Source: Holothuria leucospilota (Eukaryota). Taken from it: a DNA stretch of 64,000 nt. Positions 229 to 50,944 of this stretch are shown in pieces. A program made the translations under genes and the position numbers. The stretch spans positions 6,848,493 to 6,912,492 of the forward strand of contig CM055976.1 in assembly GCA_029531755.1 (NCBI GenBank). Direction: 5' to 3'. The notes under the pieces were generated by a model that had not been told where the DNA came from, did not search any database, and saw only the letters and a list, made by a program, of their open reading frames with translations. How positions within the stretch are numbered: the first letter of the stretch is position 1; each line of letters starts with the position of its first letter.

Positions 229-656
229 GTAAGATCACTAGGAATACTTTCTTTGACTGTAATGGACTTAGCTTAAAACATTTTTTCATGAAAGAATAAT
301 TGTTTGAATGTTGGATTTTTTAACTTTTATATAAATTCAGCATTATACCATTATTAAAGTATGTTACAAATATCATAAACACCTCTTACACTTGATGCCA
401 AACGACTTATCAGCAGAGGCATCTACCAGTAACGTCTACAAGCCCTTGATAGCACTGTTATCCAGACTTTAATTGTGAATACAGTGACTTGAGAAAAAGT
501 ACACACGACCTGAGACAAAGTGCACAAGACCTAAGACATAGTTATCAACAAGACATAAACTCATGATGAGTTGTAGTTTGTTTGGTGTCATGTTTCAGCA
601 AGCATCTATTCAGTGTTCCTGATCACTTTCCAGTGTAAAATGTGTCTACCATTTTT

Positions 657-684
657 AGCTCAGCTGAAAGCTTTCAGCTGAGCT
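657..684. repeat. 28-bp perfect palindrome AGCTCAGCTGAAAGCTTTCAGCTGAGCT followed by ATTGCTGTCG. Its head is related to the family 2 elements (TTAGCTCA-hairpin-TGAGCTATTGC).
   Basis: Direct reading. It has the same framing sequence ttAGCTCA...TGAGCTATTGc as 28511 and 47549. Confidence 0.5.
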
Positions 685-2974
685 ATTGCTGTCGTGCACG
701 GCAAAACTTCTACGTCACGGCAAACGTCTGTCACCATAACATTTGCGTTTAAGTGCCTGACATTTCGCTGTTTTTCATTAGATTTGGCTGAAATTCAGTA
801 GAGATGTTAGCAAAAGTGGTATCTGTATGCTGCGACTCTTTTCGATTAATTTGGCTGCTATTTGACCTCGGGAGGGGGCTTTGTTTGAAAACGTAAAATT
901 CCCTACTTGTCTTTCAGTTTTGCACCAATCTTGATAATATGTTTCATATAGATAGTTCAATTTGTGCTGAACAAAAGTTAAATTTTTTTTTCGTTTCTGC
1001 AATCATTAAAGGCATGAAAACATCACTTTTTGAAACAAATTCTGGCGAAGTCCGCATGTTCCGGAATACGTCGAGAATCCCAGTTGTTATCATTTGAGAG
1101 ACTGCAACGAAACCAAGTACAAACGTATACTGAACATATATAAATGTACAGGACGTCTCGTGCTTAATCGTGTGGAAGTGTTTACGCAAAGTGCAGTGTA
1201 TCGACTTTTGAATACCGTACGTGGGCTACCCCACTATGTCAGACTATGTTTGCTCAGCTCTTTGCTTTCCAAACCAGGGATATGACATGAATAAGGAATA
1301 TACCGTACATCCTACTATGGAGGCGTTACGTCATGAACATGTGGTGCTGATCTCATTCAGGCGTTTTAATAATAGACTAGCTAAATTGGTTGGATCACGG
1401 TTAGGCCTACTCGAAAAGAAATACCGGACGTTTGCAAGTTATGCAAGTTCTTGCGAATATGTGGCCTTGTGCGAAACATAGGCTAGTGGTATAAGCTAGG
1501 TGGCAGAAACAAGTATTCAACTTAGCCTGATGTCTGAATGGTTTTAGGAGTTTGGCTTAAAGTTTAAAGAGAATATATCCAGTCGCCTCAAGTTTCAAGT
1601 TATTTGTAAACATTACCTTAATCTTTCAAATTTTCTTGTATCTGCTTTACAAACATTCTTCTTAACATTTCTGGACAAAAAATTTTTTAGTATGAAAGGT
1701 AAACAAATGACTTATCTTCCTTAATAGTAAATTAGTTTATATTTGTCGCATGACACTCGGGTACACTATTTCAAGTTACTAGGGTGAATGTTGTCTAGGA
1801 AATGTCGTACGAGGAAAGAGGAACCCACCCCTTTCTTTTAAACAAAGAACATGGCACGTTGATTGAAAATACAAAGCTTCATATGGTTTAAGCTTAACGG
1901 TTGTGCTAACATTCCAAAAACAATTTTCGGTTTGAAAAAGAAAACGTGCTTTTTGAAGGCCTGTGCCATAAGTCAGTCTCGGAGCCTGCAGGAATTGTGC
2001 AGCTCAGGCTTCTAGTCAAGCGGGCCAAGGGGGCGAATCCCTCTTTGAAATTTGTTCGCCCCCTAGCAAGTTTTCAAGTTGCCATTGGCTTAATGGCATT
2101 TGTACACATTTGGCCCCCTTAAAAATTTTTTAGCCCCTGGAAGCCATTTTGCCCCCATTCAGTACCTTGTCAAGCTACAAGCCTGGTGCAGTCACATGGG
2201 CATCGACACTGCAGGAACCGCCCCAGTCTTGTTTTCCGTTGCCGAAAGCCCCACCAAGTTGTTAAGGGGAAGCCATGGGGGATGATATTTCAATAGCCTT
2301 AGACTTAGTATAAGTGTGCATATTTTCCCAACGCTCTCTACGAACTGTAGTTACCCTCCGGCCTGTTGGGACACATTCACGGGTCCTAAAAGCGATCGAC
2401 GATTTATATACCTGGTAGATCCCAATCATAAAAATGTTATGCAGTAAAATAATGTTGTAGGGGAAAACGGGACTAAAGAGTACTCAGAATTCGAGGCGCG
2501 TAAAGAATTTAATTTGGAAATTATCCCTTTATATTGAGCAATTGAGCAGTTTTGGTTTTTCCAAATCATAGCCTGGCAACACTCATTGGAACTTCTGTCC
2601 CTGGACAAGTTCAAGGAATATCTCTGGGGCAAAATATCCCTTTTAAGACCTTTAACCATTTGTAAAATTTCTTTATCGGAAGTTACTATCTGGGTCTAAT
2701 TATGGAAAACAAATGAGGTCTACAAAGCAGCACACTCATAAATATTCATTATTTGTATACTAACATCTGTGCAGTATATAAAGTTAACTTTGTGTACCAG
2801 ATTTAGTCTTTCAGAGACTTCAGGAGTTCAATACATATTTCATTGCATTTATATTTATCTCTTTGTTTTCTAACGTACGTATGATCAACATGAGTTACAG
2901 TCCCATCCAAAATATTGACTGCAGACTTTTAGGTCAACAGGAAAAGCTGAGCTTCGGCAACATTGTTGCGCTTG

Positions 2975-17577: not shown

Positions 17578-18126
17578 GTACTTCGACTTATTTTCACATA
17601 TTATCAAACAAAGTTTTGCTGAATGAATTATATGTAAGCTTTTTGTTTCTTGAATGATTTACTCTTGTAGTTAATCTATAGTGATCTCTACAAAAAATTC
17701 CCTAGCATTGCAAGTGTTCAGTGTCAGACACACAAGACTATGGTAAACTAACTTTTCCATTCTCCAGGCACATTATAACACTGACAGTGGCAAAGATGAG
17801 AACAATTGACCCATCTGTCACTCATGTAGACTTTTGGTTTCTCAGCTGCAGATTTCTCAATTTTTAGCAAGCCTTTCTTAGATACCTTTGTATTTCCCCA
17901 GTGTTTTTACAATTTGAATCACTTTACAACATATGACAAGATAATTATCATGTGTGCTTTAATTTTGCTTGAAGTTTTTTTTCAGTTTCCTTTTCAGTTT
18001 CTAAAATCCTGTGCAACCAGTGCTTTTCATGATGGTTTAGTCTTTTCTGTTTATATTATGGTGTTGTACAAGTTAGTTGATAAGGTGAGCAGATTATTGT
18101 ATTCACTGTTACTTTTTTCTCATCAG

Positions 18127-18313
18127 GCTTGCATGCTGACCTTTTATCCAGAATTTGAAGTCCCTCAACTCAAGAAACCAGATGTCACTGTGATATTGGA
18201 CTGTTCCAATTCTATGAAGGGGGAAAGCTTTGAGCATGCAAAGAAAGTTTGTTACATGATTGCCTCTCTAATGCCAAAAAACTACAGGTTTAATCTAGTT
18301 AAGTTTGGTACAA
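18127..18313 (+). CDS. PARP4: N-terminal vWA domain exon (ACMLTFYPEFEVPQLKKPDVTVILDCSNSMKGESFEHAKKVCYMIASLMPKNYRFNLVKFGTn). Its MIDAS-like motif is DCSNS, not the canonical DxSxS.
   Basis: Acceptor ttctcatcAG (18124-26) and donor ACAA|GTAAGT (18314). It carries the vWA hallmarks V..DCSNSM.G and FN...FG. Confidence 0.8.
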
Positions 18314-19122
18314 GTAAGTCAAAGGGTCTTTTACTCTCAGAAATATTCTTGTGGCAATTTAAGAGGATTGTAAATGAAAGAATATTCTTTCATCACATAC
18401 CCTTTAAACCTGTGCATCGATTGCATTGTCAGTGCGGCTTAACATTTTGTTAGAATAAAGGTTATGACTCTAAAAGCTACCTGCATACTTCATTTAAGTA
18501 TTTCAAGATTACAAAACTACAAAAGATGTTCAATTAGTTTGCCTGTATGACATCACTGATTTCCCATAATGCAGTTCATTGTTGTGAAGTGAATATTTTA
18601 TTTGAAACTGTGTAACTTTCAAATGCAACATGCTATTGAGATGGGATTTACACCAGTAAAGATTGAAGAAGATACCTGATCTTTTGAAATTCTTGCATTT
18701 TGTCTCTGGAATATCGGTTTAAACTGCAAATTTGTAGGCCTTCAGGCAGAATTTGTTTGAAAAGGGTGTTCTCCTGTTTCCAGCATATAAACCTGCTATT
18801 CAGTTGCTTTGAATGGTCTTTCAGGGTTCCAACAGCCTGCAAAAGTGAGAGTTATGTTTTAACTTTCCATGCCTGGCAAAGACCTGGAATTTTGTAAAAT
18901 GAAAGAAATCATGGGTTTTTGAAGAATTTCACTTTTTTCTTTACTTTTTCTTCTTTGAACTATGTGCAGATTTTAAGAGTTTTCAGTTTGGTTTAGATGC
19001 ATGGACAAGATCATGGAGTTCTTTTTGTTTTGTCATGAAAAGGTCGTAGAACTTTGCAAGTTGTGGAAAAGTCTTCTTTGTTCCAATCTAAAAAAAATTC
19101 TTCATGCTTAATTCGTTTGCAG

Positions 19123-19381
19123 ATTTCAAAGAGTTCTACCCTGCCTCTCGTCTGTCCTCCAAGATTGATTTTGATGAGCTAAAAGACTTTTTAGCTGGTG
19201 CATCTCCTGCAGAGGGCAACACTGATGTTTGGCGCCCGCTTCATTCACACTACCTTCTTGAGGGTGAAAATTTGCGCAATGTGTTTATCATCTCTGATGG
19301 GCATATCAATAATGAGACAGAAACTTTGAAGAGCATAGCAAAAAATTCTTCTCACACTCGAATTTTTACTTTTGGAGTGAG
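19123..19381 (+). CDS. PARP4: vWA domain exon ((N)FKEFYPASRLSSKIDFDELKDFLAGASPAEGNTDVWRPLHSHYLLEGENLRNVFIISDGHINNETETLKSIAKNSSHTRIFTFGVs).
   Basis: Acceptor cgtttgcAG (19120-22). The donor is assigned to GTGAG|GTTAGA (19382), because only this phase keeps the next exon open. The motifs GGT, IF..SDG and R.FTFG match the vWA domain. Confidence 0.75.
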
Positions 19382-19699
19382 GTTAGAGAAGCTTACGTTT
19401 TCATGGAGAGGTGCAATATATTTGCAGCCCTGGGGGGCATGAGATGGGAAGTGGTGTGATTGGGGGATAACTAACTTAGTGCATTCATATGCAGCATTCA
19501 CATCATAATATTGTATGAAAAACAATCAGAAAACCAAGTTTGAATTTCTTTTTTGTCTCATTGCTGAAGACCAAAAAGTTTTGAAATCTTCCTGCTTTGA
19601 ATGTTAAGTGTGTGACATTAGAGACTGACAAAATGGTTGTCATACTGTAAATAATTTGTTCTTAGCATTCTTAGCATTCTTTTGTTTTGTATTTCCTAG

Positions 19700-24707: not shown

Positions 24708-24782
24708 GATAAAGAGGCTAGAAAATATGAAGATGGCATGCATGATGATGAACCAAGCTCTAGTGATGAGGAGAGTATAGAG
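24708..24782 (+). CDS. Candidate acidic exon (DKEARKYEDGMHDDEPSSSDEESIE). Its 3' end, together with the adjoining intron start, is the progenitor of the downstream 67-bp tandem array.
   Basis: Acceptor ttctttgtgtAG (24705-07) and consensus donor ATAGAG|GTAAGG (24783). Phase 0 to phase 0. Confidence 0.4.
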
Positions 24783-26880
24783 GTAAGGACTGCAGTAACT
24801 ATATACAATTGTGATTGAAACCAGCTGTAGTGATGAGGGCTGCATAGAGGTAAGGACTGCAGTAACTATATACAATTGTAATTGAAACCAGCTGTAGTGA
24901 TGAGGGCTGCATAGAGGTAAGGACTGCAGTAACTATATACAATTGTGATTGAAACCAGCTGTAGTGATGAAGGCTGCATAGAGGTAAGGACTGCAGTAAC
25001 TATATACAATTGTGATTGAAACCAGGTGTAGCGATGAGGGCTGCATAGAGGTAAGGACTGCAGTAACTATATACAATTGTGATTGAAACCAGCTGTAGTG
25101 ATGAGGGCTGCATAGAGGTAAGGACTGCAGTAACTATATACAATTGTGAATGAAACCAGCTGTAGTAATGAGGGCTACATAGAGGTAAGGACTGCAGTAA
25201 CTATATACAATTGTGATTGAAACCAGCTGTAGTGATGAGGGCTGCATAGAGGTAAGGACTGCAGTAACTATATACAATTGTAATTGAAACCAGCTGTAGT
25301 GATGAGGGCTGCATAGAGGTAAGGACTGCAGTAACTATATACAATTGTGATTGAAACCAGCTGTAGTGATGAGGGCTGCATAGAGGTAAGGACTGCAGTA
25401 ACTATATACAATTGTGATTGAAACCAGCTGTAGTGATGAGGGCTGCATAGAGGTAAGGACTGCAGTAACTATATACAGTTGTAATTGAAACCAGCTGTAG
25501 TGATGAGGGCTGCATAGAGGTAAGGACTGCAGTAACTATATACAATTGTAATTGAAACCAGCTGTAGTGATGAGGGCTGCATAGAGGTAAGGACTGCAGT
25601 AACTATATACAATTGTAATTGAAACCAGCTGTAGTGATGAGGGCTGCATAGAGGTAAGGACTGCTGTAACTATATACAGTTGTAATTGAAACCAGCTGTA
25701 GTGATGAGGGCTGCATAGAGGTAAGGACTGCAGTAACTATATACAATTGTGATTGAAACCAGCTGTAGTGATGAGGGCTGCATAGAGGTAAGGACTGCTG
25801 TAACTATATACAGTTGTGATTGAAACCAGCTGTAGTGATGAGGGCTGCATAGAGGTAAGGACTGCAGTAACTATGTACAATTGTGATTGAAACCAGCTGT
25901 AGATGAGGGCTGCATAGAGGTAAGGACTGCAGTAACTATATACAATTGTAATTGAAACCAGCTGTAGTGATGAGGGCTGCATAGAGGTAAGGACTGCAGC
26001 AACTATATACAATTGTAATTGAAACCAGCTGTAGTGATGAGGGCTGCATAGAGGTAAGGACTGCAGTAACTATATACAATTGTGATTGAAACCAGCTGTA
26101 GTGATGAGGGCTGCATAGAGGTAAGGACTGCTGTAACTATATACAGTTGTGATTGAAACCAGCTCTAGTGATGAGGGCTGCATAGAGGTAAGGACTGCAG
26201 TAACTATGTACAATTGTGATTGAAACCAGCTGTAGTGATGAGGGCTGCATAGAGGTAAGGACTGCTGTAACTATATACAATTGTGATTGAAACCAGCTGT
26301 AGTAATGAGGGCTGCATAGAGGTAAGGACTGCAGTAACTATATATAATTGTGATTAAAACCAGCTCTAGTGATGAAGGTAGTATAGAGGGTTTTCACGAT
26401 GTCACGTGATTATGCATCTCTCTGGTATTGAAGGGCAAGATCGTGCGTCTCTTTGATTTTGACTGTCACGGGTCCATTGTGTTACAGAAGTATCTATGGT
26501 TATGCGTGTGCGTGTGCAGTAAATACGCTTACTGCGTGTGTGTTTTGCCCTTCAATGCCTGGGATTCCCATGCATGTGACATCACATGAAATCCCTCTGT
26601 AGAGGAAGGGATTGCACTTACTATATACAATTGTGATTAAAACCAGCTCTAGTGATGAGGGCTGCATAGAGGTAAGGACTGCAGTAACTGTATATAATTG
26701 TGATTAAAACCAGCTGTAGTGATGAGGGCTGCATAGAGGTAAGGACTGCAGTAACTATATGCAGTTGTGAGTGAAACTAGCTCTAGTGATGAGGGCAGTA
26801 TAGAGGTAAGGACTTCAGTAACTTTATGCAGTTGTGAGTGAAACTAGCTCTAGTGATGAGGGCTGTAGTTATTTAGTTAT
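24783..26880 (+). repeat. Tandem array of about 31 copies of a 67-bp unit (GTAAGGACTGCAGTAACTATATACAATTGTGATTGAAACCAGCTGTAGTGATGAGGGCTGCATAGAG). It starts exactly at the splice donor of the exon 24708-24782. The unit is the last 27 nt of that exon plus the first 40 nt of the intron.
   Basis: Direct reading shows copies >90% identical, each containing a GTAAGG donor consensus. The exon 3' end agctctagtgatgaggagagtatagag matches the unit 3' part agctgtagtgatgagggctgcatagag at 23 of 27 positions. Confidence 0.9.
26389..26597. mobile_element. Small (~210 bp) hairpin-forming insertion that interrupts the 67-bp array. It is MITE-like.
   Basis: It breaks the array periodicity. Internal inverted repeats ggtattgaagggcaa / ttgcccttcaatgcc and cacgatgtcacgtgat / catgtgacatcacatg are present. 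Confidence 0.5.
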
Positions 26881-27604: not shown

Positions 27605-28504
27605 GTGAGTGAACTCTTGAGCCATAGGTCATGTCTGAAGGTTCAAAAGACTGGAATATACAAGGTCTGTAAATATTGATCGTATCATTAAGATATTACA
27701 TGACACAGGAATCAAGCCTTTGAAACATTATTAGTTGTCACTAACCAGAAGTCTCATTATTTCCTAACTTTTATGTGTCTTCCTGTCTTATTACAAACAA
27801 AAGGGAAGTTACGAGTAACTGTGCATTGCATTTTAAAATTAATTTAGAAGAATTAACAAAGCTGTTCAAAATTAATTTAAGAGAAATAAAACCCAAGTTT
27901 TGAGTTAAACATGTGATAGTACCCAGATATCATCGAGTTAAGTCCATTTCATGAGTTCTGACTTCGCATTTCAGATAACTTGCAATCACTGTTTCCCCAA
28001 CTTTGGTATACTTTCATTTTCAAATGTCCTTTCAACTGGATGTTGAAGGGCAAAACAAAGCAAAACCTTTCCCCATGAAGGGGCCCCACTCCCCAAAAGA
28101 GCTTTGTCTTCAGAAGGGACACCATAATGCATGCAACTTTGTTAGTTCTTTTGATAATTATCCCTGACTAAAAGCAGCTTTACTCAAGTGTCACATGACC
28201 AGACTTGCATAATTGTCTGTCTACAAAGAGCTGTAATGAGACTGCAATGACTTAGACTGGACTGATCAACCTCTCAACCTTCAAACCAGGTCTGTCACGC
28301 GTAAATCTGTTCTGACTGAACAGAATTGATACTATAAAAGACCTTAGCCAAAGGGATGAGAAACCCATCATAATTTGTGTCCACAAAGAACTATGATGAA
28401 AATGTACACATAATGTTAGATGAGCATTTTATTTCTCTGGCACTGCAAGGCTAAAGCTGCCAGTTGCCTATAATTTATTACAGTGTAATCAAACCAATAG
28501 GATG

Positions 28505-29060
28505 TATATTTATTAGCTCAACCAGTTGAGCTATTGCCATGGCAGTGTATCTGTCTGTCTGTCTGTAGGTCAAAGGTCATTTGGGATCATGAGAGGTCAA
28601 AGAGTGATATCATGCAAAAGCCTTCAACTCCTGGTACTTACATCTCAATCTTTTCAAATGTAATGGGAGTGTTCAGTAAATGATGGATCTTCAAATTTTC
28701 TACTTTTGAAATAGATTAAAGGTCATTTGGGGGTCAAAGAAAGGTCAAACAAAAGGTCAAACAGTGTAATCCTGCAAAAACCTTCGTCTCCTAGACATTG
28801 TGTCTGAATTTTAGTAGATTTTGTAAGAGTGTTTAGTAGATAATAGTCATCAAAGTTGTACTTTTGAAGTTGGTCAAAGGTCATTTGGGTTCAAAGAGAG
28901 GTCAACAGTGAAATCACTCAAAAACTTTCACCCCCTAAGGGGTTGTATCCAAATTTTATCAAAGTTGGCCAAAGTGCTTAGTAGATGACAGGTCATCAAA
29001 TTTTTGAAGTTCAAAGGTCATGTGGGGTCATAAAATGGTTGAACAATGGAATCATGCAAT
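28505..29060 (+). mobile_element. Family 2 composite element. It has a hairpin head (TTATTAGCTCAACCAGTTGAGCTATTGCCATGGCA), a (GTCT)n microsatellite and about 3.5 units of a ~150-155-bp satellite (GGTCAAAGGTCATTTGGG...AGCCTTCAACTCC...).
   Basis: Perfect palindrome AGCTCAAC-c-AGTTGAGCT at 28514-28530, then (gtct)4, then tandem units. A second copy with the same head lies at 47535. Confidence 0.75.
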
Positions 29061-32000
29061 AACCTTTAACTCCACTGGAAAACTACCTAAGATCTAAAAG
29101 AAATACAGAGTAAAGTTAAGTGCTATTTAAAATATATCAAGGTGGGAAAACTTGTAAAGAATAATTGTAACAAGTCTAGAATGGTATCACACTATCACAT
29201 ATATGCTGGAAGTTTCTCCACTTCAATAGACCTTAATATGCACTGACAGCGTGACGTCAGTTTGGAGGAAAACAGTGAAGTACAAGTGCACAAATGGAGA
29301 TCTCGCATGCATGTGTAGTAGACTTACGCGCGTATACCATTGGTTGACAAATCAGCTGTCTGGCATTTGTTGGTGTAACTTGCAATGATACGCCATTTTC
29401 CTCCAAATAAGGGAGCACTTTCTGCTCTGTGACATCATATGCATAAGGTCTATTCATCATTTCGTCCATTACCAAACCGTAACATAATGGACCAGCCAAT
29501 CATTTTTAAAATGTTTTTGCATTCACAAAAAGTAAAATAGAGAATATAGACAAGAGTATCAATGATGCTGCAGCTCAACTTTGAGTTTCTCACACAAAGT
29601 TACTGTTATGTTGTTTCGTTAGGGATTCAAACCAAGGAGTCATGGACAGTAATATTACTTGGATGTATGTTCAGGGACAAGTGATATTACTGGGAAGTAT
29701 GGTCAGGGACGAATAATATTACTGGAAAGTTTAGTCAGGGATGAGTAATATTCCTGGAAAGCATGGTCAGGGGCGAGTAATATTACTGCACATGACATAA
29801 CTCAGATAAGACTGCAGTCAACAGGTAGCTGGTTCTAAGTTCTGCTGGTCTGGTCTCTTGGTTTAACCACACCTTCAATATTGTTGAACTTTGTGCAAAA
29901 ATGAAACGTGCATATAACTTTGCGGTTTGGAAATGCTTTCAACACCTTGGAGCTTTGTAATTTGCTTTTCAGGGACCCTTTTCCTCCCTTGATGATTTGT
30001 TGTGGAATGCAAAAGGAATCTTAGTGGTGTTTTTTTATGTATGGGTCTGTGTATGTGGATGTGCATGTGTGATGCATAGCATCTACACACAGGGTAGCCA
30101 GAGAGGATACATGGGTTCTTAATACGTGAGTTCTTACATAGCTGGTGCATGTATGGGTCATATTTAAAGTTAGAACCCTACTGTTTGGTGGTGGTCAAAT
30201 GTGACTTGATTTCAGCAGAGGAAAAGAACGCTATTCTTTTCAATGAAGGTCACGACGCTAGAAAAGAATACCAAGTTTTAGCCATCCCTAGTTACCACTT
30301 TTAATCCACAATCTGTCAGTGAACTTCCTGTGCAGCTATCCTGAGATCAATAAAGTTAAAGGGGTTTGGTGTTGTATTGAAATGAGGCACAGATGTAAAT
30401 GATAAATTTCATCACTTTGTAACAGCTCTTAACAAAGGTATGGCTTGAACCCTTTAGAGACTGTTTGCTCAAGAGAGCAAGTTGTTTACAAAAGGGTAAT
30501 ATTAACTGCTGCAAGTGATGAGATAAGGTTCACCTAGGAAAAGGCATTTTGGGGGGTGATTTTGGCTAAAATCTCCTAGTCAATTCTAGCAGCATGTCTT
30601 AGCTTATTTTAGGTCATCAGGAGTAACGGTTTCAGTGGTTGCTGAAACCCTTGATGTAAAAACGATATCACCAAGAGGGAACATCCAGGCATGAGCTTTT
30701 TCCGCGAATTCGCGGATTTCCGTGATTTTTTTCCAACTTCCGCTATTTCGCATTTTCATTTCCGCGAAAAAATGTGAAGTTGAAAATGGGAACAGCACGT
30801 GATTTATCATAAGATGTCAGTGAAACAGCATAGTGTCTTCAGTAAAATGTGTATTTCCACATATTTTGTTTACGTTTCACTGCAGCTGGAAATGCATAGT
30901 CGACATGTTTAATTATGATACCCTTTTTCCTTGTCATATCATAGCTCCTAGGTCATACTGTGTATGTGCTGCTTGAAAGTGGAAAGTAAAAGTGGAAGCA
31001 AATAGTCATGTCCACGCCATATACTTAGTACATACAGTATTATAGCGCTCTGATTTAGTGCAAGTTTTGTATACATGTACGTACGTCCATTGGCCCTACA
31101 TGTATCTGTACATGCAAGTGTGTACTGCACCATGCTTGCTACTAGAGTTACTGTATACTACAACGTAACTTGGTGGGCACTGAACAGAACGATCGTCTGC
31201 AAGTTAATCAAAGCTTGTATATTCACAGGGAATGTGCAAAATAATCAACTGAGCCCTTTCCTACATCTTTATAAGGTTTAAGGCAGGTTGCATATTCTGT
31301 TCATACATCTGTCACTAACTTAGAGGCATTGCCATTAATTAGGCCTAGGCTACCTGCTTACACTATCCTAACATAGGTTATATATGTGCACTGCTATTGA
31401 GCCTAGCCCATACTCGCACAGGCTGACAGGTCTCTGGCTGGGTCTGAAGAAGGCAGCCATTCAGGGATTTGGCATGAAGTTTGTAACAGACTGGTACCAA
31501 TTTTCACCAAAAGAGCTAGAAATTGGTGCCTTAAATTAGACTTTACCTAACAAGGCTAGGCCTAGGCCTAATGTTTGGCCTTTGAAGTTTTGGCCTAGCC
31601 TATGCAAGGCATGGCTCATAAATGTGCTTTACTTTACAGAGCACAGCCAAGGCACTTTCCTTAGCCAAATGTTCTGATGTACAAAAAGGGCTAATATTTA
31701 CTAGTAGGTAGGCCCTCTACTTTAAAGCCTAGGCCTATAGGCAAAAGGCCTCTAAAATGTGCTGCAAGTTGAATGGTGTTAAAACTTAATAGTGAGCCAC
31801 AAAATAATGTTGGACACTGGATCAAAGAAATCAAGAAGCCAGTTGGTATGAACTAGGTTTTGGGAAAGACAAGGTATTAATGTTGACCCAACTTAGTGAA
31901 CCTTAACACATAGGTTATACAGTATGTTACGCTTAGGTTGTTTTTGTAATTTGTTTCAACAAAATATGATAAACAGTTAGCCCATTTGGGCCTTATGAAA

Positions 32001-33961
32001 TCTTAAAAGGCCAGGAGCTTCCGGGGGCACTGCCCCCTGACCCCGCCAGGGCATTGCCTGTGGACCTGACCAGGGGCCCTAAGGCAGGCCCCTGGACCCC
32101 ACCCGTAAGAGTTCGCACTTCGCGCTCAGACTGACGCCTTGGGCGTCAGTATGCTACGTACCCAAAAGTTCAGTGATTTTTTTTGTATGTCAGGCTCATC
32201 CCTGAACATCACAGATGAGAAGAGAAATTTTCAGTTTTGGTGAAGATCAAAGTTCACTTTAGGTCACCAAAGGTCATGCAGTTATGAAAATTTTGTAGAC
32301 AGCTTGTAAATGGGATAGGTCAAGAATGGGTTACCACATCTTAGAGTTGGCATGTGTACGTTCCATGCTGAGCACAAAGGCTGGTGGAGGTCATTTGAAT
32401 TCAAAGGAGGCTAACTATGAAAAAATTAAAGGATCATGACATCACAAGAAGGGAAATTTTGATCTTTCTTATCCTTGGTAGGTAGGTACATGGTATAGTA
32501 GATTTTAATGGTTGCAATGCATAATGGGAACTGGGAGTATAAACAACAGGCGCTATATGCTGAATGGAGTACTAGTCACACTACAGGGCTGAAATTTAGC
32601 ACTCGTCCGATCGTCCGTGACGGGTAAAACTTGCATCGGACAACCACTTTCTGGCTTTGAACTTGTCCGATGGACGAGTAGATTTTATTTGTAACTGAAT
32701 AGTTCCCTACATCAGAAGGAAAGTATGTCATAAAAATCCCCTTAAGAAGTGGCATTGAGACAATGGTATTGACTACCATTCATCATTGAACCATGCCAAT
32801 AAATATGGAAAAATGCAGAATTTAAAGTAAATGTTTGTTTTCTATGGCAGAGACAGGAACAGAATTGTTCATCTCTTGTTCGTCACTTTCATTCAGACAA
32901 CCAAAAACTATTTCTCGGACAACCTAAATTTAGCTTCAGGTTGTCCGATGGGCAACCTGAAAATTTCCTTAAAAATCAGGCCTGCACTACTGTATTGTTT
33001 TAGTCCTAGTTAGTTTAGTTAGTTTAGTTCTTGGTTCCTGCTCCTTTTGTATGCATGATGTAATCATTAAGTCTGCTATTGAGTAGAAGAATTCTCACTT
33101 TGGTGGATTTTAAAGGTCATTTAAGGTCACCAGAGATCAAACTGGAAATTTTGTGAATATGTTATCATAAGAAGGGTAACCATGAGGATGCTCTTACTTT
33201 TAGCATGTTGATAAGTCATATTTTGAGTACAAGAGGGTAATATTGATTTAGCTAGGTCAAAGGTCATTTGCATTCCATTATGGTGAAACTGAATACTTGG
33301 AAAACAACATCTCCAAAAATGAAAGATTGACAAATCCCTAACTTACAATGAATAGGCTCATGTTGATTTTAAGAAACATTTTGTTAATACGTAAGGTCTA
33401 AGGTCATGAGAAATTATCAGGGGTGAAACTGTAAACTTGTAAACACAAAATGTCATCAATGGACACTTTGATGGATCTCATATTTGGCAGGTGGTTCCAA
33501 ACTTAGTGTGATGGAGGTCAAAGGGCTTATGAGTCCACAAGGTCAAACTTGATCCACATGAAAACATAATTTTCCCAGAAGGGGATGAACCCATAACATT
33601 TTGAAACCACATCATTTCTTCTCTGCAAAAAATCAAGGAGAAGAAGTTCTGATTTTGGTTTCAATTAAATAGTCTCATTTATGTTCATGAGAGTGATGCC
33701 AGTGGTAGCAATATTGAAGAAGGCAGTCACAGTAATATGGTAAGAAAAGCTGATACATTGCGGAGACACAAAAACATCAGTATCTAAAGCTGTGTTTCAA
33801 AACAGTAAAAAGAGTATCAAAGGCTATGCAACATTAAAACAGTAACAGAAGTATGAAGGGTGTGAAAAACTGAGACAGTTTTATGAAACTTCATGAAATG
33901 TGATGATCAATAAGATTATTAGATGTCAGAGTTACATTAGTATATTTTCTTTCTACTGTAG

Positions 33962-34055
33962 TTGGGCGGGAAACTCAAGGAAGTGGAAACTAGTGATGAT
34001 GAGGAAGAAGATACCATGTCATTTGATCTGGGTCTGGCTGAAGAACTATATGATG
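33962..34055 (+). CDS. Candidate exon encoding the acidic module, from the degenerate zeroth copy of the 4-kb unit (LGGKLKEVETSDDEEEDTMSFDLGLAEELYDg).
   Basis: Acceptor ttctactgtAG (33959-61) and donor TGATG|GTAATT (34056). Phase 0 to phase 1, matching the phase-1 start of the SSELEE exons downstream. Confidence 0.25.
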
Positions 34056-35509
34056 GTAATTCATTAAAATATGTGGTAGTGTTGTCAAAATAGCTTACCG
34101 AACAGATTAAATCCAAATGCAGTTTAAAACCGGAACTGCATTTGCTTGCAAATACGCAAAATTGTAGTGCATGGGGGAGTTTAGGCAAGTCCATGCAGTT
34201 TGAATTAAGGCAGTTTTGATGTGGATTTGGTATGGCATTTATTTAGTCCTGAGTTCACTGACACCAAATATTTTCACTACCTTCAGAAAGGTTTGCAAAA
34301 ATCTTTGTTTTTGAAAGGCTTTAGTTCATATTCAACCAAACCATTGACCTGCATAGTCACATTGTACTTGTCTTGCGATCAGTTCTGTGTAACTACATGT
34401 ACACATTGTGGCAACTATATTCATCATATATGGCACTTGTACAGTTCAGTCCAGATTGCTGTTGTGTTATGTACAGCCCTCTAGCTCCTAACTCTGTTCA
34501 TATTCAACCAAAGCATTGACCTGCATAGTCACATTGTCATTCTGTAGGCACTCAAGTCATGTTGTGATCAACTCTGTGTGACTACATACACATTGTGGCC
34601 ACTATATTCATCATACGGCACTTGTACAGTTCCATTCAGATTGCTTTTGTGTTATGTACAGCTCTCTGTCCTCACCATTTAACTAAAATGTGAGAGGAAT
34701 GCAGCACAACTCTCTCAGTCCAGTGCAATGAAGCCAATTGGCATTCAAGCAGTACATGGTATCTGTCTTGTTGCATGCCAACTAAGAAGCAGGGATTGCT
34801 GTAATTGAAATATACTCCAGGCTTTATACCTCCGTGGTAAAAGGCCGAATCACATTTCATCGGGTTTTCTAAGAATTTATCCACAGAGCCCTTTCGTATA
34901 GTTAACTTGTTAACCTTTCTTGTAGTTAGGGTATTTGCTTTTGTTACATGGGTTTTCATTTAATGATGACCACAGATTGACTTACTGCTGTTGTTAGAAG
35001 GTCAAGCATGGATATTTGTACGAACTAACTTAGGTACGAGCAGCATGGAGCTAGGAAGGCGGTTATAAGCCATACAAGGCTTAACAAAGGAATTCAGAAG
35101 TTGGCCAGTAATGCCAATTACACACTACAGTAATTACCTTATGCATAATCTGTCATTTGTAATTGTGATGCTAGTAACAAACAGGATATTTTAAGACAGG
35201 AATGATGGATACTTCCGTTGTGATGTTGGTGGAGGTCAAGGTCATTTGAGTCACTTTGGGGGAACTACAAAACCCTTGTAAACTGCTTGTAAATATGATA
35301 TCTTAAGAAGAGTAACATGAAGAGATCTTGCTTATAGCATATGGATGCCCTATCTTGAGAAGAATGATATTGCTTTCTCTGGAGGTGGAATTTCATACTA
35401 TCACCAAGGGTCAATTTGAGAAAACCTCGTAAACATGATATCTCAAGAAGGGTAACGGTCAGGGATCTCTCGTGTAACAAGTATCTGCTCTACATCGAGT
35501 TCAAGAGAG

Positions 35510-37770
35510 CTGTTTTTGGTTTCGATGAAAGAGAAACCTGTGCAGTCATGATGGCGTATGTGTGTATGTATGTGTGTGTGTTTGGGTGTGTGGGTGTGTA
35601 TGTGTGTGTGTGTTTGTGACGCTTAGCTTGTGTGCACGATATCTCAAGAAGAGAAACTCCGACAGTTTTCTAACTTGGTACATAAATGCCCCATATTACA
35701 AGAAAGAACCCTATCGTTTTTGGTGGGGGTCAAAGGTCATCTGGGGTCACCGGGGGTCAAAACCTGAAAACCTTGTGTGCACGATATCTCAAGTTAGGAA
35801 GCTTGGATGAATTTCATACTTAGTGTGTAGATGTGTTATGGTAAGAGGAAGAACCCTATTGTTTTTGGTAGAGGTCAAAGGTCATCTGGGGTCACTGGGG
35901 GTAAAACCCTGAAAACCTTGTGTGCACGATATCTCAAGGTAGGAAGCTTGGATGAATTTCATACGTAGTGTGTAGATGTGTTATGGTAAGAGGAAGAACC
36001 TTATTGTTTTTGGTGGAGGTCAAAGGTCATCTGGGGTCACTGGGGGTCAAAACCTGAAAACCTTGTGTGCACGATATCTCAAGTTAGGAAGCTTGGATGA
36101 ATTTCATACTTAGTGTGTAGATGTGTTATGATAAGAGGAAGAATCCTATCTTTTTTGGTGGAGGTCAAAGGTCATCTGGGGTCACCGGGGGTCAAAACCT
36201 GAAAACCTTGTGTGCACGATATCTCAAGGTAGGAAGCTTGGATGAATTTCATACTTAGTGTGTAGATGTGTTATGTTAAGAGGAAGAACCCTATTATTTT
36301 TGGTGGAGTTCAAAGGTCATTTGGGGTCACTGGGGGTCAAACTCTGAAAACCTTGTGTGCACGATATCTCAAGGTAGGAAGCTTGGATAAATTTCATACT
36401 TAGTATGTAGATGCATTATGATAAGAGGAAGAACCCTATTTTTTTTTGGTGGCGGTCAAAGGTCATGTGGGGTCACCGGAGGTCAAACTCTGAAACCTTG
36501 TTAACACAATATCTCAAGAAAGGAAGCGTGGATAAATTTCATACTTAGTATGTAGATGCGTTATGGTAAGCGGAAGAGCCCTATTATTTTTGGTGGAGTT
36601 CAAAGGTCATTTGGGGTCACTGGGGGTCAAACTCTGAAAACCATGTTAACACAATATCTCAAGGTAGGAAGCTTGGATAAATTTCATACTTAGTATGTAG
36701 ATGCGTTATGATAAGAGGAAGAACCCTATTTTTTTTTTGGTGGCGGTCAAAGGTCATGTGGGGTCACCGGAGGTCAAACTCTGAAACCTTGTTAACACAA
36801 TATCTCAAGGTAGGAAGCTTGGATAAATTTCATACGTAGTATGTAGATGCGTTATGGTAAGCAGAAGAGCCCTATTGTTTTGGGTGGACATCAAAGGTCA
36901 TCTGGGGTCACCAGGGGTCGAATGCTGAAAACCTTGTTAACACAATATCTCAAGGTAGGAAGCTTCGATGAATTTCATACTTAGTGTGTAGATGTGTTAT
37001 GGTAAGAGGAAGAACCCTATTGTTTTGGGTGGAGGTCAAAGGTCATCTGGGGTCGCCAGGGGTCGAATGCTGAAAACCTTGTTAACACGATATCTCAAGT
37101 TAGGAAGCTCGGATAAATTTCATACTTAGTGTGTAGATGTGTTATGGTAAGAGGAAGAACCCAATCATTTTTGGTGGCGGTCAAAGGTCATCTGGGGTCA
37201 CCGGAGGTCAAACTCTGAAAACCATGTTGACACAATATCTCAAGATAGGAAGCTTGGATAGATTTCATAGGTATTATGTGGATGTGTTATGGTGGGAAGA
37301 TGAATGCTATCATGTTTGGTGGAGGTCAAAGGTCATGTAGGGTCACCGGGGGTCAAACACTGAAAATGTTTTTAACATGATATCTCAAAATGGGAAGCTC
37401 GAATAAATTTCATGCGTAGTATGTACATGCATTATGGTAAGAGGAAGAACCCTATCGTTTTTGATGGAGGTCAAAGGTCATCTGGGGTCAAAAAGCAAAA
37501 TTTTAAGAATTTCCAAGATCGTCTCATGAGTTCACCAGAAGGCAAAAAGCAAATTTTCCCAAGAATTCCCAAGATCATCATCTTGAGTCATCAGATGTCA
37601 AAATGCAAAATTTCCCAGGAATTCCGAAGATCAAATATGAACCTAAAATTATTTTTCCAACATGTTAAGATAGCACTTGACCAGTGACTGAAAGACATGG
37701 GACATCATGGCATTATTTGGAATAGAACATATATCATCAAAACCTCAATGCATTTTTGCATTCTGGTTGA
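35510..37770 (+). mobile_element. Family 1 satellite-carrying element, copy B. It is the least diverged copy, with about 13 units of 145 bp. Its (TG)n-rich head lies at 35555-35625. It is inserted into, and replaces part of, the 4-kb duplicated unit.
   Basis: Unit period measured as 145 bp (ggtcaaaggtcat at 35728, 35873, 36018...). Tail subrepeats lie at 37480-37630, and the terminus at 37640-37770 matches 4900-5040 and 52760-52890. Confidence 0.85.
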
Positions 37771-38773
37771 AATTAATAAAGGAACATATTAAAGATGCTG
37801 TGAGGGTAGAGAGGTGTTTTGAACATAGAATCATGAATGTGCACCTTGCATGTCTCTTGTTGAGATCATCTGTGTGGCATTAAATTGGAATTTTGTGGAG
37901 ATGTATTGGCTTGGTCAGCAAATCAGCAAAAGTGTCCATAGGGTTAAGTGCTGAGAGGTTTCAACTGATACAGTAATTCATTGGTGCCATGAAGGAATTT
38001 ATAGTTCAGATCTTTGTGAAGGGGTAAAGTGCCAGTCAGTAAGTGTGAACTACCCCTTTACAGTCTGTGGAAAAGTAGCTGAAGACTGGGGCTACATTCT
38101 CTTACAGTTGGAGGGCATTTTAAACCCCTGGTTTAGCATCTAGAGTTTTAGTGTAGATACCTGCCACATCTTGACTCTGAAAGATTCAATTCTGCCAGTG
38201 AAAATATTTTGAGCCTACAATTACAATTAATGGGGAGCATTGGACAAAAATGTCCACTTAGTATAGATCTGTCCTATATCATTTGGTTGTGAAGTGCATT
38301 TTTAGATGAATGTAAGGTTGATAGTGTCATTTATTAAATCAACAATAGAACATGAAGTAAATTAAAGCACTGACCACCAACTATTATGAAAGTCATTAAA
38401 GTATGGAATCCACAGTGTAAAGCAGGATTGGGCACTTAAGGACCTGAAAGATGCACTTGGGGTCATCAATGTAAGTTGTGTTAACTACTTAATTATGTGC
38501 TGGTATGTTACAGTAAATATGATTTTATGCAGAAGTGTAGAATCTCACCACTTTCTGCACATTTTTGGTAAATGACTGTGTAGGTAGTACCATCACTAGT
38601 GTAGTACTGCACTCCACAGTATGGAGAATTGCATTATGTGTTGTATTGCATAAACCAGGTGCAGAAGTAGTTGGCTTTAACTTACCTTGGCAGGTTCTAT
38701 TATAAAAACACACCCTGTGAGTTAAATCATTACATACTAATGAATGAATAGTTTCATTGCTGGTTGTTTTCAG

Positions 38774-38832
38774 ATATTCTTTATAGTGCAGCAGTACTAC
38801 GCACAGATTCTTTTTCTTCAGAACTCGAAGAG
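38774..38832 (+). CDS. Candidate 59-bp exon ((D)ILYSAAVLRTDSFSSELEE) in copy 1 of the 4-kb tandem unit.
   Basis: Acceptor ggttgttttcAG (38771-73) and consensus donor GAAGAG|GTAAGG (38833). Phase 1 to phase 0. It is duplicated with intact splice sites at 42882 and 47022. Confidence 0.25.
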
Positions 38833-39476
38833 GTAAGGGTTTTTAAGGTTTTAATTCTCACAAGTTATTAGTCCAACCAGACTTGAAAATACAGACAGGG
38901 GATCACATAACCAAAAATTGATACAACTGTTTGGACAAATTTAGGCCTACAAGTATGGCTACTGATGTTGGCATAAATGTGATGATGAAAGTGCATTATT
39001 TCAGACAAAATACACCCAGAGTATAAAAGAGATGTGAAAAGTTTTCATACCAATTGTTGATTTTTACCAAGCCTTGCATATTTTCAAAAGTTTCCCAAGT
39101 TTCATGTGTCAACTGTTGCATATTTGTGTATGATGGATTCCTTGAGTAAGTCCAAACTTAACACAAAAGACATATACCAGCAGACCAGCAGCCATATTGG
39201 TGGACGCGATGTTGCAGGAGGCAGTCACAGTAATATAGTAAGAAAGCTGATACATTGTGGAGACACAAAAATATCAGTATCTAGAGCTGTGTTTCATATG
39301 AAAACAGTTGAAACAGTGAAAACAGTATCTAGGGCTATGCAACATTAAAACAGTAACAGCAGTATGAAGGGTGTGAAAAACTGAAACAGTTTAGATGAAA
39401 GCTTCATAAAAAATGATGATCAGTGAGGTTGTTAGATGTCAAAGTTACATTAGTATTTTTTTTCCATCTACTGTAG

Positions 39477-39573
39477 TTGGGCACAAACCTCAAGGAAGTG
39501 GACACTAGTGATGATGAGAAAGAATATACCATGTCATTTGATCTGGGTCCATCTTAAGAAGTTCCACCTGCTG
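39477..39573 (+). pseudogene. Copy of the LKEVETSDDE-module exon carrying an in-frame TAA (LGTNLKEVDTSDDEKEYTMSFDLGPS*). It is probably a dead or skipped exon copy.
   Basis: It has the same splice-site architecture as 43551-43647 and 33962-34055. An in-frame stop lies at ~39555-39557. Confidence 0.3.
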
Positions 39574-42500: not shown

Positions 42501-42881
42501 AGCTCTGACCAACAACTATTATGCAAGTCATTAAAGTATACAATCCACAGTGTAAAGCAGGATTGGGCACCTAAGGACCTGAAAGATACATTTGGGGGTC
42601 AACAATGTAAGTTGTGTTATCTATTATGTACTGATATGTTACAGTAAATACCATTTTATGCAGAAGTGTAGAATCTCACCATTTTCTGGTCATTTTTGGT
42701 AAATAGCTGTGTAGTACCATGACTAGTGTAGTACTGCACTCCACAGTATGAAGAGCATAAACTAGGTGCAGAAATAGTTGGCTTTAACTTACCTTGGCAG
42801 GTTCTAATATAAAAACACACCCTGTGAGTAAAATCATTACATACTAATGAATGAATAGTTGTCATTGCTGGTTCTTTTCAG

Positions 42882-47534: not shown

Positions 47535-48870
47535 GTTGTTTATTATTAGCTCAACAAGTTGAGCTATTGTCATGGCAATGCGTCTGTCTGTCTGTCTGTC
47601 TGTCCGTCTGTCTGTCCGTCAACATTGGAAAAAAGGCTGCTGCCTGCAGGTGCTTTGACCGTTCCTTCTCAAAGTTGGTGTGGGTATAACACATATCAAG
47701 GGCTTGATAATTATGGTAACAGGAAGTAGGTCAAAGGTCATTGGGGGTCGTGAGAGGTCAAAGAGTGAAATCACGCAAAAGCCTTCAACTCCTTGTGGTT
47801 TTGTTGGAATCTTTTCAAATTTGACAGGAATATTCAGAAAATGATTGGTCATCAAAGTTGTTCTTTTGAAGTAGATCAAAGGTCATTTGGGGTCAAAGAG
47901 AGGTCAAGCAAAAGGAGGTCAAACAGTGTAATCACGCAAAAGCCTTCAACTCCTATGGGTTATGTCTGAATTTTATCAAATTTGGCAAGAGTGTTAAGAA
48001 GATAATGGGTCATCAATGTTCTACTTTTGAAGTAGGTCAAAGGTCATTTGGGGTCATGCAGGGGTCAAACAGTGAAACCACTCAAAAGCCTTCAACTCCT
48101 AGGGGTTTATATCCATATGTTATCATAATTGGTCAGGGTGTTTAGTAGATAACAGGTCATCAAAGTTGTACTTTTAAAGTTGGTCAAAGGTCATCTGGGG
48201 TCAAGCAGGGGTCAAACAGTGAAATCAATCAAAAGCCTTCAACTCCTAAGGGTTATATCCAAATCTTATCAAAGTTAGCCAGAGTGTTCAGTAGATGACA
48301 AGCTGTCAAAGTTGTACTTTTGAAGTAGGTCAAAGGTCATTTGGGGTCAAAGAAAGGTCAAAAAGTGAAATGTTGTAAATGTCTTCAATTCTTAAGGGTT
48401 ATATCCAAATCTTATCAACGTTAGCCAGAGGGTTCAATTGATGATAGGTCATCAGAGTTGTACTTATGAAGTAGGTCAAAGGTCATCTGGGGTCAGAGAG
48501 GTCAAACCGTGAAATCACTCAAAACCCTTCAGCCACTAGGGGTTATATCCAAACCTTATCAAAGTTGGCCAGAGTGTACAGTAGATGACAGGTCTTCAAA
48601 GTTGTACTTTTGAAGAAGGTCAAAGGTCATTTGGGGTCAAGGAGAGGTCAAACACTGGAATTGTGCAAATGCCTTCAGCTCCTAGGGGTTGTGTCTGACT
48701 TTTATCAAAGTTGACAAGAGTATGCAGTAGATGAATTGATGGGTCATCAGAGTTTTACTTTTGAAGAAGTTTAAAGTTGTTTGGGGTCAAAGAGCTAGGG
48801 CAAACAGTAGAATCAAGCAAAAGCCTTGAAATACTCATGGTTGTGTCGGAATCTTATCAAAGTTGGCCAG
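47535..48870 (+). mobile_element. Family 2 composite element, copy 2, with the same hairpin head, (GTCT/GTCC)n and about 8 satellite units of ~150 bp. It truncates copy 3 of the 4-kb tandem unit.
   Basis: Head ttattagctcaacaagttgagctattgtcatggcaatgcgtctgtctgtctgtc at 47547-47600. The satellite units recur about every 140-160 bp from 47736 to ~48860. Confidence 0.75.
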
Positions 48871-48904
48871 AGTGTGCAGTGGATGATGCATAGGTGTACT
48901 TTGT

Positions 48905-49290
48905 GTTGATGTTAATTAGTGTTTGCACTGGGTACCCGGGTACCCGACCGATGATGTCAGGACCCTGTTCTCAAATTGCTAGCTGGATCCAAAGTTTCAC
49001 TAACATAGATTGCATGTGTGACAGAACACCTAACATGTTACTTTTTCCCTGGCAAAATTTATCACGGACACGCCTAAGAACACTTGTCATGCCTTTACGT
49101 AAGATACGTTGGTGTTATATTATATCAACTTGCAAAGCAAAATTTCTCATTATGACTTTTATGACTTTAGAACAAACTTGTAGCCTAACATAAGTTATAT
49201 TTTCGGGTACCCGGGTACCCGACCGACCATCGAGTTCGGGGAACCTGGTTCCGAGTTTTGGACCCTGTGCAAACACTAATGTTAATTGCC
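48905..49290. mobile_element. MITE (~380 bp) with TTAA-initiated terminal inverted repeats (TTAATTAGTGTTTGCAC / GTGCAAACACTAATGTTAA) and an internal direct repeat GGGTACCCGGGTACCCGACCGA.
   Basis: The TIRs were read directly at 48907-48923 and 49267-49285. The TTAA at both termini is suggestive of the piggyBac superfamily. Confidence 0.6.
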
Positions 49291-50944
49291 ATTTGGGGTC
49301 ACAAAACATCATATGGTGAAATGCATGCTAGTGCTTCTCCATAAGGGTTTATGTTTTGTATGATGTATACTATAGGAATCATTTTTTGACAGACCTGACG
49401 AATTGGGGTATAAGTAGCCTAATTTTTGTCAGCAGAATTACCTACAGTACTGTGCCCACAAACACTTAACAAAAAGTCGCAAGCCGGACAACTCTAGCAG
49501 ATATACCACTGCTGTGACCATTTACATCTATAGCACTGAAGTTCCTAGATCATGACAGTCTACGACTCCTTGATTTGGATCCCTAGTGAAACTATATAAC
49601 ATAAACTGTGTGAGAGAAATTTTAGTTGAGCTACAGCATCATTGATGCTCTTGTAGTATTTTGTTTCTTTGGTATTATCATTGTTCTAGTTCATACCAGG
49701 AGATGCAGTTTGAATGAAAGATTTGTTTGCAAATGTTTTGAAGCCTTATCAGATCTTTCTATGCATGTCTATGGTGTAGTAAAAAAACAATTATCTTCCA
49801 TTATCAGGATAAACAGATTTAGGAAAAAGAAAATGGGAAAAAATTTTTCTCCCTAGTGTACAGCAATTTCAATGCAGAAAGGGTATTGATGTATTCAAAG
49901 TGTCAAAAGTAAGGACTAAATTTGTTAAATGTTTGCTGTAAATAGGTACATGTATCCCAGAGTGGCATAAAATCATAAAATATGGATAAAAATGGGCTTT
50001 AGCATAAAAAAGTCACAAAATGATGGGAAAAAGGATGCAGTAACTACATGGAGATGTGCACTGAACTACATAGACATGTACATGGCATAGAGTGATTACT
50101 GTGGGTGGGGTGTGAAGGCTTTGGCCACACAATTTCACAACTATGGGCCATAAGTGTGCTGGACCACTTCTAACTTGGGGGTCTGCAGCACTTCTGCCTG
50201 AAATTTTAATGCATATTGCCCAAAAGTGGCATATATTTCACAACAAAATGACAAATTTTCTGCTCAAATGGGGCACTCTCCCATCTCATACTCCTATGGC
50301 TATGGTAATCTCATACTCTTATGGCTATGGTAGATCAATTTCTGTTTTGCATAGATGTTTCCATGTTCCCCACACTTGGCAAAGTTATGATTCTTGCTAC
50401 TGTTATACTGTATTTTGAATATAAAAATGTATATTTTTTTTTTATTTGTATATAAAAATCTTTTTTAGAAATATGAACACATGAAGGATTAGTGTCCCAT
50501 GGAGGTTTGATCCATTTGGGATGCAGGACAGTTGACCAAAATTTGGGATGATTCCCATCAAAAAGAGGATGCCTGGTCATCCTGTCAATGATTGTTATCT
50601 CAATATTTAGCACTCTGCAGCTGTATTTTACAGCAGCCTAGGGCATAGGTCAATAATTTTGTGCTGAGTAAACTTGTAATGATGACACTATGGCAAGAAA
50701 TATATCTACAGTATTTTTTAGTGAGAGTAGACTGAGATAATCATTGCATAGTATTTGCTAGACCCATCCTAGTTTCCCAGTAAAAAAAACTACAGCCACA
50801 AAGTTTTAAGAAAAATCTATTCCAGCTATGCAGTGAGCATAAATGAATATTAAAATGCCCCTGACTTTACAGAAAGTGTAATGTTTGTGGTTCATATTAA
50901 AATGTTAGAAAGATAATCTCTGTGTGGTATCTTATAAAATTTGT

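Follow-up and report, generated by a model that had tools for sequence, protein, structure and literature searches.

Two satellite-carrying repeats on the + strand of the 64-kb window (the whole stretch of DNA that was analysed), here called E1 and E2, are very probably copies of a single HINE family, i.e., non-autonomous Helentrons of the pearl / DTC84 / Cg_HINE / DINE-1 type. Assignment to the HINEs by structure is well supported; the likeness to pearl is one of architecture, the published sequences being known by description. The family, referred to below as family 2, has two heads and two tails in the window, distributed over one complete element (E2), one 3'-truncated copy (E1), and one tail fragment on the minus strand (E3). 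E2 spans ~47543 to ~49660 and measures ~2.1 kb, or ~1.75 kb when a nested MITE is left out. The original prediction of a pearl-like mobile element with a microsatellite and a satellite array is supported, and strengthened by the 3' subTIR and palindrome now found; the layout is as published.

Both elements open with a left flank (E1, 28510..28549; E2, 47543..47581; both + strand) that contains a hairpin. The 5' subTIR TAGCTCAAC (28514-28522 in E1; 47547-47555 in E2) is paired with the inverted repeat GTTGAGCTA (28525-28533 and 47558-47566, respectively), and a small palindrome, TGCCATGGCA, is located at 28535-28544 in E1. The two arms form a perfect 9+9 hairpin, 2 nt apart and alike in E1 and E2; a perfect palindrome had been recognized here before, with arms given as 8+8, slightly too short. 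Folded as single-stranded DNA, the heads reach -7.0 to -7.1 kcal/mol (z -2.8 to -3.2 vs. shuffles). The hairpin head TTAGCTCAACnAGTTGAGCTATTG has exactly two matches in the 64-kb window (28513 and 47546; 0 expected). In the window scan the head pattern TTAGCTCAACNAGTTGAGCTATTG was recovered at 28513-28536 and 47546-47569, both on the + strand and with 0 mismatches; no third match was present in the window, even with 3 mismatches allowed (0.00 expected in shuffles). Within the window, the observation of two elements with a common hairpin head is confirmed. Among JGI metagenome contigs and IMG/VR viral contigs the head pattern had no exact match. Search strings for family 2 are TTATTAGCTCAACNAGTTGAGCTATTG for the head and GTTGAGCTRCAGCATCATTGATRCT for the tail.

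Left flank and microsatellite of E1 and E2 are 91% identical over 57 bp (BLAST). Similarity detected by BLAST begins at 28510 and 47543, and the subTIR of E2 starts 4 nt inside this point; the flanks further upstream have no BLAST-detectable similarity. A weak resemblance between E1 and E2 is seen over the ~16 nt upstream of the BLAST start, which places the true 5' end of E1 somewhere in 28494-28510.

The left flank is followed by a tetranucleotide microsatellite, in E2 at 47582..47620 (+ strand; (GTCT/GTCC) x 9.8) and in E1 at 28550..28566 (+ strand; ~4 units of TCTG/GTCT, read directly and too short for the TRF score threshold), so the (GTCT)n tract expected after the head is found in both copies. 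In E2, but not in E1, a 102-bp spacer (47621..47722, + strand) separates the first full monomer from the microsatellite. The possibility that this spacer is a decayed, truncated monomer was considered; its score was only ~2 sd above shuffles, and the reading is not claimed.

The central array of E2 holds monomers 1-8 at 47723..48916 (+ strand; ~146 bp each), for which TRF reported 7.8 copies of a 146-bp unit (47723-48886; 78% matches). Past the nested MITE the array resumes with a ninth, decayed monomer (49279..49420, + strand), which is 52-61% identical to the other monomers and keeps the GGGGTCA register. The central array of E1 (28567..29076, + strand) consists of 3.5 monomers of ~146 bp and is broken off inside monomer 4; the right flank and tail motif are absent downstream on the + strand. 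The arrays described at the outset are thus real, with 3.5 and 9 monomers of ~146 bp instead of 3-8 units of ~150 bp, and for E1, placed at 28505-29060, head, tract, and array all stand, the array end being at ~29076 inside monomer 4 and a 3' flank being absent.

Monomer by monomer, the E1 array lines up with the start of the E2 array over 3.5 units, the in-register BLAST match being 79.5% vs. at most 75% in other registers. Pairwise, E1_m1 and E2_m1 are 81% identical; E1_m2 and E2_m2 are 84% identical and have in common a 14-16 bp insertion found in no other monomer; E1_m3 is 80-84% identical to E2_m3/4/6. Because the monomers correspond by position, head and array were copied as one unit; the two arrays did not arise independently at their present sites.

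The 3' part of E2 begins with a unique stretch (49421..49551, + strand) between the array and the conserved right flank, at which the similarity to E3 stops. In the right flank (49552..49660, + strand), the 3' subTIR GTTGAGCTA at 49625-49633 is the exact complement of the head repeat and is followed one base later by a palindrome with a 7-bp stem (AGCATCA-t-TGATGCT, 49635-49649). The match between 5' and 3' subTIR is perfect over 9/9 positions and reaches 10/12 when extended. This tail repeat is located ~2.1 kb downstream of the E2 head, just past the array. The whole window has just three + strand copies of GTTGAGCTA, namely those of the two heads and of the E2 tail (0.24 chance occurrences expected in the window), and only 65 hairpins whose stem reaches 7 bp or more, one of which adjoins the E2 tail repeat. 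As both the repeat and such hairpins are rare, their juxtaposition in the tail is not a matter of chance.

The 3' end of E2 was placed in a T-rich run 10-13 nt past the palindrome, and the 3' subTIR is ~28-36 nt from the element end. E2 starts with TTATTAG and finishes with ...CTCTTGTAGTATTT, both termini being uncertain, the 5' one by ~15 nt and the 3' one by ~4 nt. T-rich DNA is found at both E2 junctions and at the 5' junction of E1. In the original prediction E2 ended at 48870; its actual end at ~49660 makes it ~800 bp longer, the tail having been missed.

The MITE nested in E2 (48917..49278, no strand assigned) is hAT-like and 362 bp long; it is a later insertion in the array and not part of the element. 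Its inverted ends (19-nt arms, 95% complementary) begin with TAGTGTTTGCAC, with TAGTG as in hAT elements, and an exact 8-bp target duplication, ATGTTAAT, is present at 48909-48916 and 49279-49286. With the MITE taken out, the monomer register of E2 runs on into the ninth monomer. The sequence GGGTACCCGGGTACCC at 48930 was considered as a terminal palindrome of E2 and rejected, since it is part of the nested MITE, with a second copy at 49205.

The third representative, E3, is a right flank on the minus strand (29545..29653) that belongs to the same family and is 81% identical to the right flank of E2 (81% over 104 bp for 49552-49654 against the reverse strand of 29550-29653). The subTIR of E3 is GTTGAGCTG; its palindrome has lost one base pair and no longer folds. 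Similarity between E2 and E3 ends a few bases past ...CTCTTGT(n)nTATT, from which the distance between palindrome and 3' terminus given above was derived. Internally, E3 carries tandem repeats of a 32-bp unit (29639..29788, minus strand; 4.7 copies) that are unrelated to the 146-bp monomers; no left flank or head was found upstream of these 32-bp repeats. An origin of E3 as an inverted piece of E1 was ruled out by this different interior. The tail is modular, being common to E2 and E3 despite unrelated central repeats.

The order of these parts is that of the HINEs, a layout defined for DINE-1 and mite HINEs by Thomas et al. 2014 (PMC4067079). In the Pacific oyster it recurs in eleven Cg_HINE families, and the microsatellite is of GTCY type in several of these (Vojvoda Zeljko et al. 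2020; PMC7492417); the HINEs, which have no target duplication, include pearl, DTC84, and MgE as well as Cg_HINE (PMC7492417). Subterminal inverted repeats are present in family 2, their perfect part of 9 nt being shorter than the typical 11-15 nt. The inverted repeat that forms a hairpin beside the 5' subTIR and the microsatellite past the left flank are present in both E1 and E2; the central repeats have a fixed orientation, with equal monomer order in E1 and E2; and the palindrome after the 3' subTIR near the 3' end is present in E2, has one pair broken in E3, and is absent from E1 together with the whole tail. In published HINEs the inverted repeat lies 1-22 nt from the 5' subTIR and the palindrome 8-35 nt from the 3' end. 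The pearl layout (flank, tetranucleotide microsatellite, ~160-bp core repeats, flank, asymmetric inverted repeats) is likewise that of the element described here.

The same termini bear on the reading of family 2 as cut-and-paste MITEs, moved by a DDE transposase and having inverted ends and an AA/TT target duplication. Pearl and DTC84 were originally classified in this way (PMC3879986), and inverted repeats near both ends, with T-rich DNA at both junctions, would fit such elements. This reading is nevertheless highly unlikely, because the 3' repeat lies ~28-36 nt inside the end whereas the 5' repeat is almost terminal, and because the 5' repeat forms a hairpin with the inverted repeat beside it whereas a separate palindrome is found past the 3' repeat, an asymmetry that is the signature of HINEs (PMC4067079). 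Pearl and DTC84 have since been reclassified by the field as Helentron derivatives without target duplication (PMC7492417), and no target duplication is evident in E2, whereas the true MITE nested within it has terminal inverted repeats and a clear 8-bp duplication.

Very improbable, too, is an immobile local satellite with flanks acquired by chance or recombination and spread by segmental duplication. The window is indeed rich in tandem and segmental duplications (e.g., a 4.1-kb unit at 37767-47440), and family 2 has only two or three copies, all within 21 kb. The similarity between E1 and E2, however, starts at the head, stops at features of the element, and is not continued into the surrounding DNA; E3 is inverted and has only the tail in common; the combination of head, tail, and palindrome is too specific for chance; and the same build recurs with unrelated sequences in a second family of the window (family 1, see below) and in an unrelated eukaryotic contig, L006. 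A canonical Helitron derivative (Helitron-N, the Repbase label for equivalent oyster elements, with a 3' hairpin near the end) or a SINE-like retroposon is extremely unlikely, as the 5' end of E2 is TTATTAG and not TC, a CTRR 3' terminus is seen in neither E2 nor E3, the subterminal inverted repeats present here are lacking in canonical Helitrons (PMC4067079), and there is no tRNA/pol III-type head, the 3' end being a palindrome and a T-run without a poly-A or simple-repeat tail.

Contig L006 is one of two eukaryotic contigs retrieved in a metagenome scan with the satellite core, the other (L005) having a single monomer-like fragment. In L006 a (TCTG)7 tract leads into a GGTCA-rich start, without similarity to the head; this lends support to the build being general and adds no member to family 2. 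No match to head or core was found among published sequence strings and two satellitome supplements, and the scallop CvA primer had no match in the window.

Family 2 elements contain no ORF of note. ARAGORN detected 0 tRNA genes and Rfam gave 0 matches; a protein search with the three-frame translation of the consensus monomer against 5.8 billion proteins returned no match. No Rep/helicase ORF of an autonomous Helentron is present in the 64-kb window, in which the ORFs of at least 110 aa show only VIT/VWA exons; autonomous partners were not found for the Cg_HINEs either (PMC7492417). Nearest relatives of the PARP4-like VIT/VWA exons of the window, with 82-83% nucleotide identity, are in a Logan run and on a TARA scaffold. 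Two loci (L002 and L003) align to the window at exons only and have no related element there.

As HINEs, the family 2 elements are most likely mobilised in trans by the Rep/helicase of a Helentron. Having no coding capacity of their own, they would be recognised at their terminal structures by the Rep/helicase(/endonuclease) of an autonomous Helentron located elsewhere in the genome, which would nick the 5' end, displace one strand, and come to a halt at the 3' repeat and palindrome. Insertion of the single-stranded copy at a T-rich (TT) site would follow, without target-site duplication, and the tandem repeats would be carried along as cargo, their number changing by slippage or unequal exchange, and such elements would in this way scatter short satellite arrays through the genome. 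Mobilisation in trans and a rolling-circle-type intermediate are established for Helitrons and Helentrons, and these steps are taken from there. The copies of family 2 are 80-90% alike; this 10-20% divergence and the nested MITE point to old insertions, and nothing suggests that the family is currently active.

A further structure resembling the heads is a perfect palindrome of 30 nt at 656..685 (+ strand). It has the same TTAGCTCA...TGAGCTATTGC frame as the heads of E1 and E2, folds with -14.5 kcal/mol (z -4.9), is preceded by a T-run, begins with TTAGCTCA, and, like both heads, is followed by GAGCTATTGC. The 9-mer GAGCTATTG is found 3' of this palindrome and of both heads, and in only those three places in the window. 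Of the microsatellite only a GTCTGTC remnant is left on the 3' side, and no microsatellite run, tandem repeat, or tail is present within 2 kb past the palindrome. It had been described as a 28-bp palindrome at 657-684 in the same frame and without an array, which is accurate as to frame and array and short by one base at either end. The palindrome probably represents the left flank of another, related family; it may be the head of an array-less element, or a fragment.

Family 1 is present in the window as three large arrays (~2950-5035, ~35510-37767, and ~51580-52890). Its parts are, in order, a 5' hairpin (GGTTTC...GAAACC), a (TG)n tract, an array of 145-bp units, an array of 56-bp units, and a ~175-bp tail that contains GAAACCT and, after it, the palindrome AATGCAtttttGCATT. 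Family 1 is thus HINE-built too, with sequences other than those of family 2, and the occurrence of two HINE-built families in one window suggests that HINEs are a major repeat class in this genome.

The satellite core GGTCAAAGGTCAT occurs 40 times in the window vs. 0.14 expected. That it is common to both families was correctly noted at the outset; the shared part extends over ~43 bp and not only 13 bp, the consensus monomers of families 1 and 2 being identical at 36/43 positions over their first 43 nt. Over the remainder of the monomers identity is 0.52 vs. 0.47 ± 0.03 for shuffled sequences (~2 sd). With similarity limited to ~43 bp, the families share a box and not a whole satellite. Of the proposal that a common satellite library was taken up by different backbones, the sharing of the 43-bp box holds; the rest of the monomers is near the shuffled level, and both backbones are of HINE type.

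Every monomer opens with this 43-bp box, and in both families no other segment is as well conserved. The box consists of four direct RGGTCA half-sites (AGGTCA-a-AGGTCA, 4 nt, GGGTCA, 4-5 nt, RGGTCA), and all exact RGGTCAnRGGTCA (DR1) sites of the window (25/25; 0.04 expected) lie in these monomers. The half-sites are look-alikes of nuclear-receptor response elements (DR1, DR4, and DR4/DR5). A role of the box as a functional protein-binding module, as opposed to neutral cargo, is unlikely. If it were under selection, the box could serve a host nuclear receptor, in which case HINEs would be spreading hormone-response-like sites near genes; it could instead serve a factor in transposition or array maintenance, which would explain the 'conserved boxes' of bivalve satellites. 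The conserved RGGTCA box is the single point that might repay follow-up.

Satellite-carrying non-autonomous Helentrons have already been well described, and family 2 is probably just another member. Among bivalves and insects such elements make up a well-documented major repeat class; what was found here is real, if ordinary. The locus is of use as a worked example, in which a complete element, a truncated sibling with the same monomer order, a tail shared with different repeats, and a second HINE family are found together. For annotation, the arrays should be masked as transposon-borne, with the nested MITE in E2 taken into account.

Compared with DINE-1/HINE elements of insects and mites (PMC4067079), family 2 has in common the subTIRs, the nested 5' inverted repeat, the microsatellite, the central repeats, the 3' stem-loop, and T-rich DNA at the junctions. 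It differs in its central repeats and flanks and is without the conserved 'core' block of DINE-1; its 3' subTIR, ~36 nt from the end, lies just short of the 38-60 nt given for DINE-1/HINE (PMC4067079).

Pearl (CvA, CvE, CvG; Crassostrea virginica) and DTC84 (Donax trunculus) consist of two flanks enclosing an array of 1-6 core repeats (~160 bp each), which is bordered on one side by a tetranucleotide microsatellite (Gaffney et al. 2003; PMC3879986). With both of them family 2 shares an inverted motif that is terminal beside the microsatellite and subterminal in the other flank (PMC3879986), as well as one monomer segment with reduced variability; with DTC84 it shares an ordered series of core-repeat variants (PMC3879986). 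The microsatellite is GTCT here (AGAC/ACAG family), in contrast to ACGG in DTC84/CvG and ACTG in CvE, and E2 has 9 monomers, whereas the usual maximum in pearl/DTC84 is 6.

The Cg_HINEs of Crassostrea gigas (PMC7492417) have the same module order as family 2, with an inverted repeat 1-12 nt away, a 4-nt microsatellite (GTCY/GTCC/GTCK), a variable spacer of 10-500 bp, fixed-orientation monomers of 140-180 bp, a 3' subTIR, and a palindrome. The perfect subTIR is 9 nt here vs. 11-12 nt in Cg_HINE, as judged from the published descriptions, and the monomer is 146 bp, a length as short as this being found among the Cg_HINEs only in CL6. Related flanks with unrelated repeats, as in E2 and E3, are known from Cg_HINE group 2; two consecutive arrays, as in family 1, from Cg_HINE 10_13 and 11_12; and boxes shared by unrelated monomers, as in families 1 and 2, from CL4 vs. 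CL1/2/10/13, so that the box of the present two families recalls the conserved boxes between dissimilar Cg_HINE monomers and in BIV160.

Family 1 shares with family 2 the build of a HINE (non-autonomous Helentron). Its main copies lie at 2950-5035, 35510-37767 and 51580-52890, and fragments are found at 29960-30200, 33100-33560 and 56039-56587 (minus strand). The 5' part consists of a hairpin (GGTTTC..GAAACC) followed by a (TG)n tract; the centre of an array of 145-bp units and then an array of 56-bp units; the tail, of about 175 bp, terminates in GAAACCT and the palindrome AATGCAtttttGCATT. Roughly one-seventh of the window is derived from HINEs.

Every HINE monomer starts with four direct RGGTCA half-sites (e.g., 47728-47770 and 35872-35912), and their spacing resembles that of DR1, DR4 and DR4/5 sites of the nuclear-receptor type. 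The window has 25 exact DR1 matches (0.04 expected), every one of them on the plus strand and within a HINE monomer.

The array of the complete family 2 copy, E2, carries an inserted hAT-like MITE of 362 bp (48917-49278), with inverted ends TAGTGTTTGCAC..., an 8-bp target duplication (ATGTTAAT) and two subterminal motifs (GGGTACCCGGGTACCCGACCGA). Upstream of E2, a tandem block with a unit of about 4.1 kb (37767-47440; about 2.3 copies, 87-91% identity) begins at 37767, the base at which the conserved tail of a family 1 element stops, and ends some 90-100 bp short of the head of E2.

Other repeats are also present. A homogeneous 67-bp satellite (24751-26389; 24.5 copies, 95% identity), with four further copies 200 bp downstream of the main array (26600-26865), has no relation to the HINE monomers. 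An interspersed repeat at 33702-34130 and 35141-35517 is 79-83% identical to stretches at 39200-40048 and 43308-44110; the copy at 33702-35517 is interrupted by about 1 kb of additional DNA and adjoins the head of a family 1 element at about 35510. Tandem repeats with a unit of 64-79 bp (56676-56960; 2-3 copies, 77-80%) adjoin the minus-strand family 1 remnant.

A PARP4-like gene, with VIT and VWA domains, has exons on the plus strand at 14156-14533, 17914-18453 and 19104-19442. Their nearest public relatives are contigs with 82-83% nucleotide identity, from a Logan run and a TARA scaffold; the collections searched therefore contain hardly any sequence from the source species or a close relative.

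Outside the window, the unrelated eukaryotic contig L006 (JAAUXW010004109.1) has at 4000-4240 a flank followed by a (TCTG)7 tract and the GGTCA-rich beginning of a repeat; a P-type ATPase exon lies upstream of this region. The build is that of the window elements, but without similarity to their heads.
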